Shown here in pieces: positions 27,311 through 37,202 of a stretch of 64,000 bases of DNA. The notes under the pieces were generated by a model. It did not search any database, was not told where the DNA came from, and saw only the letters and a list, made by a program, of their open reading frames with translations. This stretch comes from Craspedostauros australis (Eukaryota): the NCBI GenBank assembly GCA_030167865.1, contig JALAGF010003803.1, forward strand, positions 1-64,000, given 5' to 3'. The translations under genes were made by a program, and so were the position numbers. The stretch's first letter is position 1. Every line of letters starts with the position of its first letter.

Positions 27311-29160
27311 ATGCATCGGACCAGGATGGCAGCCATCAGATGCATCGCATCATTCGCACTATGCGCATTGCGTCTCGCATGCACGGCCGTTCTCCTCGCT
27401 CTCTCCACCGCACACAATGTCGATGCTTTTTCATTCACGACGAATGGACGACATCATGTGATGCCGCCCCCACTGCCAATCCCAATAACTGGCTACACGT
27501 TGGACCATCGAAGGAGACACCACTCGTTTGTGTTGTTCTCCGAAAAGATCGATTCAATGTCATCCACAGGAATCAATGGTACCGAGACCGCCAACGGACT
27601 TCAAAACCCGCGAGAGACGCAAGATGGTGAGGGAGATGCAGCATTTCTGGAAAGCCTCGATCCCATCATCACAGCGAACAAAACCATGTTGGAAGTCAAG
27701 AGCTTTCTATCCCTCGATGACTACGAAGCCAATCAGATCAACACAGAACGCATCCGCACCCGCATCTGCGAAGGACGCACCTACGCCCGGCCGGATGCCT
27801 TCCGCAAGGAGAACATCCAAGATCCACCCACCCTCGACGATCTGCTGCCCATGCCAGTCAGCAGGTTGCAGAACTTCTACACCACCTCCATCTTTCGGGT
27901 GCTCGTCTTCGTCAGCTCCTTCGTGGCGTTTCCCTACATCGCCCAATTTGCCGATCAGATTGTGGACATATCCCCCAAGCAGCTCAACGACATCGTGTCT
28001 AAATTCGTGCCGGGCGTCACCATCCTGTACGGTACCATGATCTCCTTGACGCTGTCCCTGCTCTACGCGCGCCAGCGCGATATTCAGAACATCGTTGCCA
28101 AGGAAAGCTCCTTGCTGTCCATCGTCTTTCGGAACCTGATATCCTTGTTCAAATACGATCGGGATCTGCTCGTCGAGGCCGGCAAATGTGTCTCGGATCA
28201 GGTTCGCACCATGGTGCGCACCAGCCGCGGCAAGGAACTCATGGCCATCATCTACGCCGATCCGTACGCGCGCATCGTGGATCTCATCGATCAAGAAGAA
28301 GAACGCATCGCGGCGAGGTCGGGCAACTTCATGAGGCGCGGTGTGAGTGCTACTCGACTTGGATGGATTGTGTCGCATGGATACACTGTGCTGTGCTGTA
28401 CTGTTGGTGCTTGAAGTTGATCTATAACGTTGGACTCATTGTATCACATGGATCATGCTCTCCATCTCCCAGCATTCAAATCATTTCTCATCGAATCAAC
28501 TCAAATCCAACACAAAATGGGGTCCACATCATTCTGGCACCCCGTTCCATTGCGCCACCTTCCTTCTCTCCTTCCTTCCTCCCTCTTCACATACCACATG
28601 CACCACATACTCGTACTTACTTTCCCGTTTCTGAACAGCCACTTCTGACGAACTGCAGAGACTTGATCAACCAGCTGACATCCATCCGCGCCGAACGTCT
28701 GAGCCAGGAATCCAATTCCCTATCACCCACCCACTTCCAGCTCCTCAACGTCCTCACGATCCTCATCCTCATCGGTTACATATTATCCGTCCTCCCCACG
28801 CTGGATGAACTCGGCCGGCCCAGCAACGCCTGCTCTATGCTCTTCGGCGTCCTCTGTTGCTTGTATGTCGTCTTTTCGCTCTTCGCTGACGACCTCAACG
28901 AACCATTCTTCGGTGTATATCAACTCCGACGGTCAGCATCCGCCTCGCACTTTCTCACCATCAAATGGATCATCGCCAATCATCCGTGGTTGCGCGACAC
29001 GATCGACTTCGAAGACTGCATGGCAGGTGACACCGGCGATTGGATCAAGGTGGATTCCCCAAGCATTGGAGAAATATTCTTCGAAACCAGCCAGCCCTAT
29101 TCAGACTTTCGCAGTTTCAGCACGGATGAAGACACCATCAACATAAAGCAGGATTCGTAG
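27311..29160 (+). CDS. Plastid-targeted DUF4239/bestrophin-like membrane protein; exons 27311-28342, 28639-29160
   Basis: Presequence ...AHNVDA-FSF; TM segments; ILYGTMISLTLSLLYARQRDIQ and DLNEPFFGVYQL are typical of DUF4239; start may be the Met at 27326. Confidence 0.7.
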
Positions 29161-30026: not shown

Positions 30027-32154
30027 ATGATCTCCAGCCTCGTTTGGGTCCCCGCCGGCGTCGCCGATCCCAAGCCCAAGAAATATGAGCTCAGTACAAC
30101 CGAACAAGAGCTGGTGCAGATGCTGGAACAGCAGGGGATATCTGATCCTTCCTTGCTGCCAACAGCGACAGCAGACGCCAAGCAAAAGACCAAGGCAAAG
30201 AAGAAGAAGGAACCATCCATCCCCAACACCTTGCCCGCCGATCTGCGCATGGATGAATACTCCAGCGACGAAGACGATGCTGCTGCTGGATCCGCCCTCG
30301 GAAACATGCTGATGGGACCCGCATCCATGGAGGAAGAGGAAATTGGAAGAGAACGAGAAGTTCTGCCCAAGTCCAAGAGACCAGTGAAGGGCGACGACAG
30401 CGATGATGATGACGACGATGATGATTTGGCGGATGTTCTCGATATGCGTGAATACACACCCATCGATGTGGAAGGCCTGCAGGCGATGGGAATGTCGCAT
30501 GTGGGATCCAACACTCCAGTGTACATGGGAGATGACGATGTCGATGATGAGAGCGATATCAATGACGTCAATTTGTCGCCGGATGATGCCCTCATTGTGA
30601 TCGCCAAGACCGAAGAGGTTAGTGAATTGTGAATTGTGTGATGCGTGATGCATGATGCGGAATGGTTTGAGATGATGCGAAATGAAATAAAGTGAAGTGA
30701 ACATGTGCAAACGTGTGGGAACGTGTGCGATGCAGCGTCAAGAATTCAACGGAGCGTGGCCATCGCAACAACGGCAACAACCCGACAGCAACAGTGGCTC
30801 AAGATGGAGACGACGTCATTTCAATGAGTACTACGAGTACGTGGGCTCACATACCATACGAATACCTATCGGCCCTCCCCTTTCCTGGCGTCTACCTCTT
30901 CCAACAACAACTGTAACCACTGTTGATCGAACGTAGGATTTTGCCTCATTGGAAGTCCACGTGTACGAACCCAAATCTGGCAACATGTTCGTGCATCATG
31001 ACATCCCTCTACCTGCCTTCCCTCTGTGCCTCGCACATGGTGATGTCAGTCCTGGCGGCGCGGCGGGTAATTTTTGCGCAGTGGGAACCTTCTCGCCGGG
31101 TATCGAGGTTTGGAATTTGGACGTCTTGAACGCGTTGGAACCATCCTGTATTTTGGGCGGCGAGGACACCTCCATGGCCGATGACCTCATGAAGTACAAT
31201 ATGATGAACGGACCGCAAAAGGGAGTGGATCATGCCTACACCTCCAGCAGCAGTGGCGGATTGCGAGAAGGAAGCCACACGGACGCCATCATGGCGCTGT
31301 CATGGAACACCGTGCACCGGCAAGTGATCGCAAGCGGATCCGCCGATTGCACCGTCAAGCTGTGGGATGTGACGAAGGGAGCCATCGCTGGCACCTTCAA
31401 CCACCACAAGGACAAGGTCCAGTCGGTGGCGTGGCATCCGCAGGAAGGCACCTTGCTTGCCACGGGAGGCTACGATCGGACCGTGGCCTTGATCGATGCG
31501 CGCGCCTCCAGCGATGCCGTCCGCAAGGTCAAGATACCCGGCGATTGCGAATCCATCGCGTGGGATCCGCACAAGTCGCAATATCTGACGGTGGCGAGCG
31601 AAGACGGGACGATAAATTGTTGGGACGTGCGCAAATTCGTCACCAACACACCGGCGTGGTCCTTCGTGGCCAACGAATTCGGTGGCGTCAGCGATATCTC
31701 CTACAACCCCATGGTCCCCGGCATGATGGTCTCCTGCTCGACGAACAAGATGATCAACATTTACGATGCCAATACCGAAGGCGTCGCACCCACGTTGTGC
31801 GGGAGCAAGGATATGAAGGTCGGCAAGCTGTACACGGTGGCCTTTTACCAATCCAGCCCGTGGCTCTTGGCCTGTGGTGGCGGAGGCAACGAACTGGCAT
31901 TGTGGGACATGACGCGCGAAGCCTCCATCCAGAACAAGTTTGGATCCAGGGCGATTGGCGCTGCTGAGTCGATACAAACTGCCTCGGAGTCGACTGCTGA
32001 CTTTGAAGCCATGATGACATCACCATCGGACAAGGCAGGTGAGGAGGCCGCAAAGCCATCCGAAACGCGAGAGCCCAAGAAGAATGGATCCAAGAACAAG
32101 AAGAAAAAGAAGGGTGGTGGCAACAAGAAGAAGAAGGCACATAAAGTAAGATAA
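30027..32154 (+). CDS. PWP1: Periodic tryptophan protein 1 (WD40); exons 30027-30617, 30937-32154
   Basis: MISSLVWVPAGVA, LEVHVYE, HHDIPLPAFPLCL, IEVWNLDV, WD40 repeats, Lys-rich tail. Confidence 0.93.
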
Positions 32155-32499: not shown

Positions 32500-33417
32500 A
32501 TGTTGATGAGGGCGATCCGGTCGTCTCTCTTCACCGCCCATGTGCTGGCGGCCAGATCTTTGTCGACCACGGCATTCACGCCTGCCGTAGTTGCCTCCAA
32601 TCGCGTACTTGTCCATCCGCACGGCACGAGTACGGACAGTGGCAGCGACAGCGACAGCTACAGCAACGGCAGTCGAGTCAGCAACGCCTTCATCTCGCAA
32701 CCTTCCCATCGTCACTATTCATCCACTTCCTTGAGCGCTCAATCCCAGGCATCCAGCAGCAGCAGCGATGGGGAAGCCGAACAATCCCGCCACCGACAGG
32801 AGCAACGGGAGCTGATCCAAACCATCCGCAGCACGCCTCTGCTCAATGCCAACGGCGAGCTCTCAACCCTTCAATCTCGTTGGAACAAGGACAAGCCCAC
32901 CGTCGTGGTGTTCTTGCGCCATCTCGGATGAGCCTACTGCTGGTCGTACGCCAACGCATGGTGTGCCGATCAGCAGCAGCAACAGGAGCAAGCCGCGGAT
33001 CAAATCAACGGGCCTTTCTTCATCTCCATTGGCAACGCCGCCAAATTGAATGGTTTCTTGGAGGCCAACCCCAACGTGCCGCGTGATCAGATTTGGGTCG
33101 ACGACTTTGATTTCGAATTGTACAAATCCATGGGATACCGCTCCTTCCTGGAGCGTCCAGACGATGGTCTGAAGCTGAAAGTGCGAGTGCCATTCACCAC
33201 GTTGGGAGAATACGTGAAGTACTTCCGAATCTTCCTCAAGCTGGCGCCCTTCACGGATGATCTGGGCTTTGGCGAGTTGCCACCCGGCGGATTGGTCAAC
33301 GGAGGAACCATCGTGATTCGGGATGATCAGATTGTGTACGAATGGAAGGATGCGCTGCCAGGCGATTATCCGAATGTGCAGGATGTGATGGATGCGGCGC
33401 TGGAGCGTGAGCAGTAG
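32500..33417 (+). CDS. Peroxiredoxin-like (PRXL2/AhpC-TSA_2, SelU-type) selenoprotein; in-frame TGA 32929-32931 read as Sec (UxxC)
   Basis: ORFs 32500-32931 and 33046-33417 share a frame and are separated by one TGA, giving VVVFLRHLG-U-AYCWSYA...FFISIG...LYKSMG...GGTIVI...PGDYP. Confidence 0.88.
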
Positions 33418-33474: not shown

Positions 33475-33582
33475 CCAAGGGCATTTTGGAATGACAGCAT
33501 TTACAGACGACAATCAGCAAACATGCAGCAGTAGTAGGATTGATTGATTGTTCAAGGATGTGCTTGATCGCAAAAGACTTGG
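33475..33582 (+). promoter_or_regulatory. Candidate non-canonical SECIS element for the PRXL2-like gene
   Basis: AUGAC (33491) opposite UGAU (33565), lower stems UUUUG/CAAAA and CCAAG/CUUGG, upper stems AGCA/UGCU and GACAAUCAG/UUGAUUGUU; folded by eye; no canonical AA spacing. Confidence 0.4.
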
Positions 33583-33776
33583 CACACAAGGCTATGAAAT
33601 TGGCGAAACGCAACATCAACCAAAGCTGCAGAGGCACTTCATGCGCCAATGCGATTGCATCTCTAACTATTGCTTACACACTTGTAGTAAAGTCGATTAG
33701 AGTAGAGCACTATAATTCGCCAGCTACCTAACTGCCCACACCCGTAGCATTCTACACACTCTCCAGTCCTTTGCGC

Positions 33777-35369
33777 TTACGATTGCTTGACCGCGTCGTC
33801 GCTCGTCGGTGATGATGTATTGGCACCACCCTCCTTCGTCTCCCCGAATTCCGTCTCCGACACACGATAGTACCAATTTGGCATATGCGAAGTCTGCAGC
33901 CGATAATCGTAGAATACTTCCTCGTTGCACAGATCCCGCGACGCCACCAAGCACATGCCGTGCATGTCGATGGCCTCCTTCTCCCACAGGCTCCCAATCA
34001 TGGTGAGGGTGGGCGGGCGGGCGTAGGTGTTGGGGATGTACTGTTCGGTGTCTTTCAAATTCATTTCCTTGGTGAAGTTGAGCATGGCGGATTTGGCATT
34101 GGGCGGGTTGGTGGGGCTGGGATGGTTGATGACATGCCCCAAGGCGAAGGCGTTGGAGTTGTCCTGGACGAGGACGGTGTAGGGCGAGTTGCGCGAATCG
34201 ATGAGATGATCGTCGCCACGCAGGGACATTTGGTAGTTGTCATTCTTTTCCAATGTCTTCTCGACTTCGAGGGGTATGTTGACGAGGTGTTCCTTGACCC
34301 AAACCTCGCCGGGTTGGAAGGCGAGGATGCTGCCAGCCTCGGCAAAGCCATCGACGTATACGCCGCGTCCAGCAGTAGGGATGGAGGATTGCAGGGCGAC
34401 GACACAGTACCCCAGTTCCTGCTTCAAGCGCGCAGCACGACACATATTGACCGTCTGGTAGTGCCGGATGATGTCATCCATCTCGGCATCGTTGCGGGAA
34501 TGGTATCCAAAGCTGTCCGCCTCAGGCATTGGCAATAAATCGGTTGCATTAGGATTGGCATTGGCATTGGCATTGGCATCAGCAGTATTGGCAGCTTCGT
34601 TGCCATTTCCCGATGGTACTGTTGCAGCATCGTTGTCGTCGGATCGATTTGCTCGTTTGGCACGATGGTTCAAGAGCAGTTGGATAGCATCATGCTTGCG
34701 CCGCAAAAACTCCATCGGCGAGGCACCCTTGGGAGCGCCCATGGGATCATCCAGCTCGGCCCTCGTGAGCACCATCTCCTGTTCCAGCATGTGCTGAAAC
34801 GAGGCATGATCCTGATCCAGATCGGACGGCAGCTCGGCATCCACCGTGCGGAAGGTGTGAAAGATTTCTTCAACCTGCGGTTGCAGCAGCTTCTGCATCT
34901 CGCGACGTAACTGGAACGTGGTCAGCTCGTCAATGTTCCTGTCCTCCAGCCGCTGCATGGCCACGTCGACAAGCTGGTCCCTCGTCGCGTCTTCGTGCTC
35001 CTCTTCGCCGGTGAGAGAACGGTACTCCAATGCCAGGATGGTGATGATGAGGTCCTTGCGCTCCTGAATGCGGCGGGGGCTGTTTTCGGCATCGCGCTTG
35101 GAGGTGTTGCGCGAGCTGCCCTGGAAGGCTCGGAATGGATTCCAGGACAGCGACAGAGCGGATGATGCGGAGTAGCAGCGACGTGGATGCTGATGGATAT
35201 CACAGCGCTCATGCTCATAGCCGTGGTTGTCGAAGGCTGGCGGTTGCTGAGGGAGGTGCCTCGGAAGTCGCCTGGTTGATTGACGCAGCGACCGTGGTGC
35301 AGAGGGGGCTGCTGCTCTCCTGACCAGCCCGCCCACACCGGCACTCCTCCGGATGCTCGTATTCATCAT
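33777..35369 (-). CDS. SET-domain protein, SETD9-like, with mitochondrial-type presequence
   Basis: SSIPTAGRGVYVDG, NAFALGHVINHP, LVASRDLCNEEVFYDYR; Arg/Ser-rich N-terminus. Confidence 0.75.
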   Translation of the reverse strand: MMNTSIRRSAGVGGLVRRAAAPSAPRSLRQSTRRLPRHLPQQPPAFDNHGYEHERCDIHQHPRRCYSASSALSLSWNPFRAFQGSSRNTSKRDAENSPRRIQERKDLIITILALEYRSLTGEEEHEDATRDQLVDVAMQRLEDRNIDELTTFQLRREMQKLLQPQVEEIFHTFRTVDAELPSDLDQDHASFQHMLEQEMVLTRAELDDPMGAPKGASPMEFLRRKHDAIQLLLNHRAKRANRSDDNDAATVPSGNGNEAANTADANANANANPNATDLLPMPEADSFGYHSRNDAEMDDIIRHYQTVNMCRAARLKQELGYCVVALQSSIPTAGRGVYVDGFAEAGSILAFQPGEVWVKEHLVNIPLEVEKTLEKNDNYQMSLRGDDHLIDSRNSPYTVLVQDNSNAFALGHVINHPSPTNPPNAKSAMLNFTKEMNLKDTEQYIPNTYARPPTLTMIGSLWEKEAIDMHGMCLVASRDLCNEEVFYDYRLQTSHMPNWYYRVSETEFGETKEGGANTSSPTSDDAVKQS

Positions 35370-36137: not shown

Positions 36138-37202
36138 ATGCCGTATCTATCAATACTCTCCGCCTGCACGCACAGCCATGCGACGTTCGGATTCGTTGTG
36201 GGGTACAACCTCACCCTCTCGATTCTGTTCGTCCTTGGCTTGTACATCTTCGTGCCAGGCCACGTGCGCAAGCTGCATCGAGACGATGTGCTGCAAATCA
36301 AATGGAGAAGCTTCGCCTCTTTGATTGTGACCGCCGCGGCCACCATCACCTACAGCGCCATCTTCTGCGAGTCTCCATCTTTGCTGCAAGATCAGCAGCA
36401 GCAGCAATCAAGTACGGAAGGACGATGGTCCACGATCGGTCTGTACGCCATCGATCTGCGCGCCATGGCCATGGTGCTATTCCATTGCAACCTGCTCTAT
36501 CTGGGATCGACGATAACAGCTATCGTCAGGGTCCTGGCGTATCGATTCCAACGCCTCAAGCATTATCCCAACCAAACGAAGCAGCGTTCGGCGTTGCAAG
36601 ACATCCTGCAGACATTCGTCACATTGCCATTGCAGCACATCCGATACAATGAGGAGGAACGATGGAAGGCCATTCGCAACTTCGTCATGGCACCCATCAC
36701 GGAAGAGATCGTATTCCGCGGATGCATGGTGCCGCCATTGCTGCAGTGTCTCAACGACATGCGCGCTGACAACAACGACGATATCGACAGCATCCGCACC
36801 GACAACCACGCCATCGTTTGTTGGATCGCGCCATTGTTCTTCGGCGTCGCACATATCCACCATGGATTGATCCAGGCACGACACGGCATCCCCATGTCCC
36901 GCGTCGTCCTCATGACGATATTCCAATTCACGTACACCACCCTGTTCGGTTGCTACACCGTCTACGCATTGCTGCGCACCAGCAACCTGCCCTGCGTCAT
37001 TGCAAGTCACGTCTACTGCAATTGGAGGGGATTGCCAGATTTCGCATTTTGGGATCCGCATACTGCAATCTACAAGTACCGAATATACCTCATGGTCATT
37101 CACATCGTTGGATTGGTTGGTTTCATTGCGGGATTTTATTTCTTGGGCTTTGACTCCGGCAACGAGGACGGCTCCACGCTGTTGGCATCTAAATTGCGAT
37201 AA
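36138..37202 (+). CDS. RCE1: CAAX prenyl protease 2 (Rce1)
   Basis: APITEEIVFR, FFGVAHIHH, FTYTTLFG, SHVYCN and multiple TM helices. Confidence 0.9.
   Translation: MPYLSILSACTHSHATFGFVVGYNLTLSILFVLGLYIFVPGHVRKLHRDDVLQIKWRSFASLIVTAAATITYSAIFCESPSLLQDQQQQQSSTEGRWSTIGLYAIDLRAMAMVLFHCNLLYLGSTITAIVRVLAYRFQRLKHYPNQTKQRSALQDILQTFVTLPLQHIRYNEEERWKAIRNFVMAPITEEIVFRGCMVPPLLQCLNDMRADNNDDIDSIRTDNHAIVCWIAPLFFGVAHIHHGLIQARHGIPMSRVVLMTIFQFTYTTLFGCYTVYALLRTSNLPCVIASHVYCNWRGLPDFAFWDPHTAIYKYRIYLMVIHIVGLVGFIAGFYFLGFDSGNEDGSTLLASKLR

Follow-up and report, generated by a model that had tools for sequence, protein, structure and literature searches.

Selenoproteins with a UXXC active site, named 'AhpC', are described across protists by Mariotti et al. 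(2013; PMC3753652), together with vertebrate C9orf21-like homologues that carry Cys. The searchable supplement of that paper includes a candidate from Emiliania huxleyi with the motif FLRHLGU, whose ESTs are classed as 'SecEST' and whose SECIS is of grade A, with no apical-A mark in the supplement. Both RHLG matches in the searchable supplement file are to this E. huxleyi protein, and no diatom RHLG sequence is found there. Diatoms have 20 to 44 selenoprotein genes, and SELENOU is among the commonest and most widespread selenoproteins of algae, according to PMC7539508; T. pseudonana has two SelU proteins (PMC2375036). SELENOU1, SELENOU2 and SELENOU3 are PRXL2A, PRXL2C and PRXL2B, respectively, and Sec forms of SelU2 and SelU3 occur in invertebrates (PMC13134290, PMC3473315). 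In PRXL2B, the CXXC reduces the endoperoxide of PGH2, next to a positive patch shaped by Arg40 and Pro167 (PMC12938796).

The gene described here is found in Craspedostauros australis, within a window of 64,000 nucleotides (the whole stretch of DNA that was analysed; contig JALAGF010003803.1, positions 1 to 64,000). Very probably, it is a functional nuclear selenoprotein gene in which UGA codon 144 is read as selenocysteine (Sec) by way of a hairpin at 33475-33582, and its product is an oxidoreductase of the RHLG branch of the PRXL2 family, likely of the plastid. Judged by its motif, the E. huxleyi candidate is a member of the same subfamily, and its prediction in 2013 makes the present gene less surprising, as the family is already known. 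By-eye comparison finds FLRHLG-U-xx-C-W-x-YA, a GP-x-FIS-x-G strand and a GGT segment in both proteins. The C. australis gene differs in its organism, in having a presequence and in the 69-nucleotide spacing of its SECIS-like core halves. Its reading as one gene corrects a split annotation, and a family for which algal selenoproteins had been predicted before gains a Sec member together with its Sec paralogue. Its features are as follows.

32500 to 33417, forward strand: single-exon coding sequence of 305 codons with one in-frame TGA and a TAG end (frame reading, codon bias).
32500 to 32574, forward strand: putative signal peptide, amino acids 1-25, with a T-T-A end before F26 (motif inspection).
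32575 to 32790, forward strand: Ser-rich, transit-peptide-like linker, end approximate (composition).
32800 to 33414, forward strand: PRXL2-type thioredoxin-fold domain (structure model, Foldseek match to PRXL2B, profile match).
32917 to 32922, forward strand: Arg140-His141, invariant in all 25 rows of an alignment; the PRXL2B counterpart of Arg140 is Arg40, next to the CXXC.
32929 to 32931, forward strand: TGA codon 144, putative selenocysteine at the first position of UxxC (paralogue and Cys relatives).
32938 to 32940, forward strand: Cys147 (TGC), putative resolving Cys, located where the active-site helix begins (translation, structure model).
33358 to 33369, forward strand: P-G-D-Y loop (Pro287), aligned to the PRXL2B Pro167 loop.
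33475 to 33582, forward strand: SECIS-like hairpin in the 3' UTR (core motif scan, folding).

The frame opens with the ATG at 32500 and closes with the TAG at 33415-33417; with TGA translated as U, it gives 305 amino acids and no further stops. Its sole in-frame TGA is located within FLRHLG-U-AYC (residues 138-147), and ORF calling with table 11 cuts the frame into ORFs of 143 and 95 amino acids. Log-odds of codon use, with four neighbouring ORFs as the training set, are positive before (0.139) and after (0.228) the TGA in the gene's frame only; the other forward-strand frames and the 3' UTR are negative. The initial annotation had described two same-frame ORFs, split by one TGA, with coding sequence continuing to the TAG, and both the frame and the two-sided codon bias bear this out. 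Frame reading and column alignment likewise agree with its placement of the TGA at the first Cys position of the thioredoxin-fold motif FLRHLG-[TGA]-AYC. No GT donor adjoins the TGA, as it also noted, because the preceding codon is GGA. Against the splicing-out of the TGA, which it had named as a refuting outcome, stand 127 candidate introns (in-frame GT/GC..AG, 30-400 nucleotides, each removing the TGA), none of which keeps FLRHLG and YCW, or even FLRHLG.

A search of the genome's own sequence (65.9 Mb, 6734 contigs) gives two matches to the domain: the gene itself and a paralogue on contig C5545 (locus L002, 1441-2325, reverse strand). The paralogue is 44% identical, contains one TGA and reads LLRHLG-U-PYC, and the TGAs of the two genes fall in the same alignment column. 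Because the only other genomic match to the domain has a TGA in this column, the position is not a matter of chance. The paralogue is followed, 100 nucleotides past its stop, by a CC-type SECIS-like hairpin (AUGAC..UGAC), and its sequence predicts that it is a second hidden selenoprotein of the RHLG subfamily.

A phmmer scan yields 164 proteins at E<=0.001, of which the best 150 were surveyed at the TGA column. Among these 150, 36 span the column, 104 begin only past it, nine have an unaligned N-terminus and one ends at the column. Homologues were expected to have Cys or TGA here, and Cys is found in 28 of the 36 spanning relatives (27 CxxC and one CxxS), beside the TGA of the paralogue; the remainder have Trp (three, WxxC), other residues (three) or a gap (two). 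True Cys forms exist, since loci L003 and L004 carry TGT. The many fragments that start past the column, surveyed as proteins only, are the expected result of a stop-like codon there, and introns or broken contigs may account for some of the 104. The three proteins with Trp at the column (P0010, P0060 and P0103, at the protein level) may reflect TGA read under another table by the gene caller, or a real change to TGG.

In the protein collection, the gene is represented by two records that match residues 1-143 and 211-305 exactly; as had been anticipated, gene callers break it up. The source of both records is 'mmetsp', which we take to be transcriptome assemblies. The first record ends exactly at the TGA, which fits an unspliced, correctly assembled stop. 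If the source is indeed a transcriptome, the TGA is present unspliced in RNA, as judged from proteins only, perhaps of the same strain.

The genome encodes a tRNA-Sec (76.6 bits, with the cut-off at 47; ARAGORN assigns the anticodon UCA) and SepSecS (E=8.5e-70); the search for Sec machinery covered these two components. TGA also terminates ordinary genes, for example the paralogue, L104, L107 and L109, so TGA has not been reassigned throughout the genome. It is extremely improbable that the TGA arose by misassembly, that splicing removes it, or that a code change across the genome makes it encode Cys or Trp. The Trp found in three of the 36 spanning relatives is what such an explanation could draw upon, whereas the intron survey, the end of the mmetsp record at the same place, the TGA-terminated genes and the tRNA-Sec all argue against it.

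Nine further distinct TGA genes belong to known Sec families (L088, L091, L099, L100, L101, L108, L113, L114 and L120), comprising two SelU, two GPx, a SelT-like, an MsrA, two SelM/F-like and a thioredoxin reductase (TrxR) gene. The TGA is at the known Sec position in both kinds of RRPG-U SelU gene (L088 and L089-L091). A Sec-type TGA is present in two of three GPx genes and in one MsrA locus (12 matches, ten of them read as loci), and the thioredoxin reductase (L120) ends in GCUG. The translated region of L089, L090 and L091 is identical on three contigs (C1201, C3411 and C3810), which reflects duplication or redundant assembly.

Pfam AhpC-TSA_2 (PF13911) matches the protein weakly (18.6-20 bits, below the cut-off of 27) and matches 14 of the 25 members of alignment A1 at E<=0.01, with a best E of 2e-24. 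The only match of the A1 profile in the PDB is human prostamide/prostaglandin F synthase, which is PRXL2B (E=3.3e-16). Residues 101-305, modelled by AlphaFold2 with Cys in place of Sec, give a pLDDT of 91.9. The model predicts a thioredoxin fold with R-x-x-x-C/U-x-x-C and a PGD loop, in which UxxC opens the helix following a strand, and its closest structure is of PRXL2 type. Foldseek ranks PRXL2B structures first and second (9usa and 9us9), and Tpx, AhpE and BCP peroxiredoxins follow. PRXL2B, as the best match by profile and by structure, shares with the modelled protein an Arg at four residues ahead of the first Cys, the CxxC and the P-G-D-Y loop. However, it has Cys where the C. australis protein has its putative Sec, the identity is 17-19%, and the substrate may be a different one.

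In a 40-row tree, which includes no vertebrate and no E. huxleyi sequence, the protein is found inside a 25-row RHL[GA] clade (100/99). Close Cys relatives of the E. huxleyi protein (P0048, L003 and L004; TGT) are in the same clade. Its own branch is long (1.14), and its identity to any row of the tree is at most 43%. Next to this clade are plant-like RHFG proteins: the land-plant AAED1-like sequences (RHFG-C-P-[FC]-C-W), among them the mango protein P0134, form the sister group (90/91, not starred). In contrast to the C. australis protein, they have only Cys, and they are 18-21% identical to it; the terms 'AAED1' and 'chloroplast' co-occur in the literature. The motif F-x-RH-xx-[CU]-xx-C is common to the protein and to E. 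huxleyi and vertebrate AAED1/C9orf21-like members in the supplement of PMC3753652. These comparisons support an RHLG (AAED1/'AhpC'-like) branch for the protein.

Classical SELENOU1 (PRXL2A) proteins share with the gene's product the PRXL2 superfamily (PF13911) and the UxxC site, but their motif is RRPG-U-xx-C instead of RHLG, and the genome's own four RRPG proteins (L088 and L089-L091) group apart (100/100). Identity with SELENOU1 was rejected on these grounds. The initial annotation had proposed a PRXL2/SelU-type Sec protein; the superfamily stands, and the classical SelU1 branch does not.

Peroxiredoxins proper have the peroxidatic motif PxxxT/SxxC. True peroxiredoxins (BCP/PrxQ, Tpx and AhpE) are of the same fold class, appearing from Foldseek rank 3 onward, but the C. 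australis protein has RHLG-U-AY-C without this motif, and it shows little likeness to the PrxQ-like protein of its own genome in a profile comparison (probability 4.6%). The candidate identity of a peroxiredoxin proper was rejected as well, and 'peroxiredoxin-like', as the protein was originally called, is apt for the fold and not for the motif.

The long terminal branch and the subthreshold Pfam score might suggest a decaying duplicate of the paralogue whose true stop is at codon 144, and a change from TGC or TGT to TGA takes only one base. Such a nonsense mutation is very improbable, because the TGA is shared with a paralogue that is no more than 44% identical, the 161 codons past the TGA are open, with coding-like bias and conserved residues kept, the model folds with high pLDDT, and the core motif is present in the 3' UTR. 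Sec at the UxxC is instead supported by the TGA of the paralogue, the Cys relatives, the fold, the Sec machinery (tRNA-Sec and SepSecS) and the SECIS-like element, and the reading of the locus as a 305-amino-acid selenoenzyme stands with it.

For this selenoenzyme we infer a mechanism that comprises Sec insertion, SECIS function, location, chemistry and substrate. The hairpin at 33475-33582, with an AUGA/UGA core expected to adopt a tandem G-A kink-turn, would direct tRNA-Sec to decode UGA codon 144 as Sec. The translated protein, an RHLG-branch oxidoreductase of the PRXL2 family with a thioredoxin fold, would lose its presequence, most likely in the plastid. Its Sec144 would then attack a substrate (a peroxide, an endoperoxide or a disulfide) positioned near Arg140. 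Cys147 would resolve the intermediate by forming a selenenylsulfide, and the Sec144/Cys147 pair would be reset by a reductant of the thioredoxin or glutathione type. By analogy with PRXL2B, we would guess that the substrate is a plastid lipid hydroperoxide or an endoperoxide.

Diatom plastid presequences are bipartite, with a signal peptide, F at position +1, and then a transit peptide. In the C. australis protein, residues 23-28 (TTAFTP), which we take to resemble the diatom ASAFAP motif, occur after a borderline hydrophobic stretch, whose best 9-residue Kyte-Doolittle mean is 1.79, versus 2.0-3.6 in motif-bearing relatives. The linker (residues 26-95) contains 21 Ser, but also six acidic residues. 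The paralogue has a clear bipartite presequence, with a distinct hydrophobic core followed by VSAFQP. Among 23 rows with a long N-terminus, which include the protein and its paralogue, 12 have a hydrophobic core and an [ASGC]F motif, and the protein narrowly misses. By motif inspection, the location is probably the plastid.

It is unlikely that the Sec enzyme is instead mitochondrial or dually located. The Arg-rich start (MLMRAIRSS), the weak hydrophobic core, the acidic residues of the linker and an R-H-Y-S-S stretch, which presumably resembles a mitochondrial cleavage motif, would fit such a location, but T-T-A-F-T-P, the core and V-S-A-F-Q-P of the paralogue, and the core and motif in 12 of the 23 rows point to the plastid. 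Location in the ER or periplastid space is distinctly unlikely. The initial description of the protein as organelle-targeted is likely to be right, as judged by motif inspection. No plastid-targeted Sec protein of diatoms was found in the literature searched, most subscription journals being outside its scope. If the protein is plastidial, it provides a link from seawater selenium to photosynthetic redox control. The N-terminus of the Sec-type MsrA (L108) also resembles a bipartite presequence (SAAAFSP), so perhaps more than one Sec enzyme is sent to the plastid.

The SECIS-like hairpin is located 73 nucleotides past the stop and 560 nucleotides past the TGA. It comprises helix I, a 5' core AUGAC (33491-33495) inside GAAUGAC (33489-33495), a 5-bp helix (33496-33500 with 33560-33564) and a 3' core UGAU (33565-33568), with 69 nucleotides separating the core halves. 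AUGAC..UGAU with its flanking helices corresponds to the UGAN/KGAW core between helices I and II, as this core is defined in PMC3753652. The folding energy is ordinary and not above that of shuffled sequences (z -0.92; 33 of 200 shuffles fold as well), and most of the 5-bp helix is absent from the centroid structure. Rfam (RF00031) gives no SECIS matches in the region or in the whole genome. A weaker second candidate, AUGAA..CGAU, is found about 100 nucleotides further downstream.

A published pattern (NTGA, 10-13 nucleotides, AA/CC, 15-39 nucleotides, GA; PMC2375036) fits three of 11 elements; the gene's own hairpin, which lacks AA/CC at the published apical spacing, and seven of the ten others miss it. 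The core halves are separated by 22 to 114 nucleotides over the 11 elements. Long apical stems have been reported before from Ostreococcus, Chlamydomonas and Dictyostelium (PMC2375036), so the length of the apex alone is not new.

An exploratory scan reveals AUGAC, a closing helix and UGAH behind six of eight Sec-type genes, this gene included. A first, narrower pattern, with limits fixed from those eight, matches one of three new Sec genes (TrxR L120, which it flagged while that gene was listed as a control), and the other two fit only with widened length limits. This pattern matches none of 24 true controls with sequence, and three places in the window on both strands. The sequence GAATGAC occurs within 500 nucleotides of the stop in all 11 Sec-type genes and in two of the 24 controls. 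Leaving out this gene, the count is ten of ten (Fisher p=5e-7, post hoc, for a motif derived from the same genes in which it was counted). GAATGAC with a stem of at least five ungapped pairs is found in nine of the 11 Sec-type genes and in none of the 24 controls, and an AUGA core inside the motif, with a helix closing onto NGAN, is present in all 11. The window contains six GAATGAC sequences on both strands, and the stem is found only with the copy at 33489, in the gene's 3' UTR. The Cys-type locus L004 has GAATGAC within 234 nucleotides past its stop, possibly as a relic element or by chance.

A held-out test, set in advance, used 51 new loci, 49 without a Sec-type TGA and two of Sec type. 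None of the 49 has the motif and stem, and the bare motif occurs within 500 nucleotides past the first stop in four. The two Sec-type loci, which are copies of one PDI-like gene, lack the motif; each is frameshifted and lies on a contig with about 225 nucleotides of sequence past the stop. The distance from stop to core is 225 nucleotides or more in six of the 11 genes, and so extends past such contig ends. The test supports the specificity of the motif, not its sensitivity.

It is quite improbable that the gene encodes a selenoprotein and yet the 33475-33582 hairpin is not its working SECIS, with a different element in that role, or that GAAUGAC has another role in 3' UTRs. Such an explanation would accommodate the ordinary folding energy, the absence of AA/CC at the published spacing, the post hoc choice of motif and the weaker downstream candidate, but not readily the core and NGAN helix in 11 of 11 genes, the absence of motif plus stem from both control sets (0 of 24 and 0 of 49), or the fact that the hairpin is the window's sole element of this kind.

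With the hairpin taken as a SECIS, a broader and more tentative reading, which we place somewhat short of even, is that the genome as a whole uses a stripped-down SECIS. This would consist of a GAAUGAC 5' core, a short helix onto NGAN and an apex of free length, with no fixed apical AA/CC in eight of 11 genes, and the gene, recoded by it, would encode a Sec enzyme for import into a complex plastid. The odd SECIS shape common to the genome's selenoprotein genes is the most interesting part of the analysis. If the reading is correct, standard SECIS finders miss most selenoproteins of this alga, and apical adenosines are dispensable in a natural system. If core-only hairpins are working SECIS elements, counts of algal selenoproteomes that rely on SECIS searches are too low, and natural elements offer a test of whether apical adenosines are needed.

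The PDI-like TGA gene (CRQG-U-GYC; copies L177 and L178 on contigs C3823 and C3929) changes frame after its first domain in both copies, and one has an extra TAG. A repeated AhpC-TSA-like family (L161-L168 and L173) has the motif RGIHCPIC and, in several members, internal stops; bare GAATGAC is found downstream of four, without a stem.

The selenoprotein gene is located between a WD40 gene that ends at 32154 and a convergent ORF that ends at 33777. The convergent ORF (33777-35369, reverse strand) encodes 530 amino acids with no Pfam match at E<=0.1, and its stop is 360 nucleotides from that of the selenoprotein gene. X1 contigs from either side end at 33681 and 33688. Ordinary neighbours on the forward strand are the WD40 gene (30027-32154), a bestrophin-like gene (27311-29160) and an Rce1-like protease gene (36138-37202).
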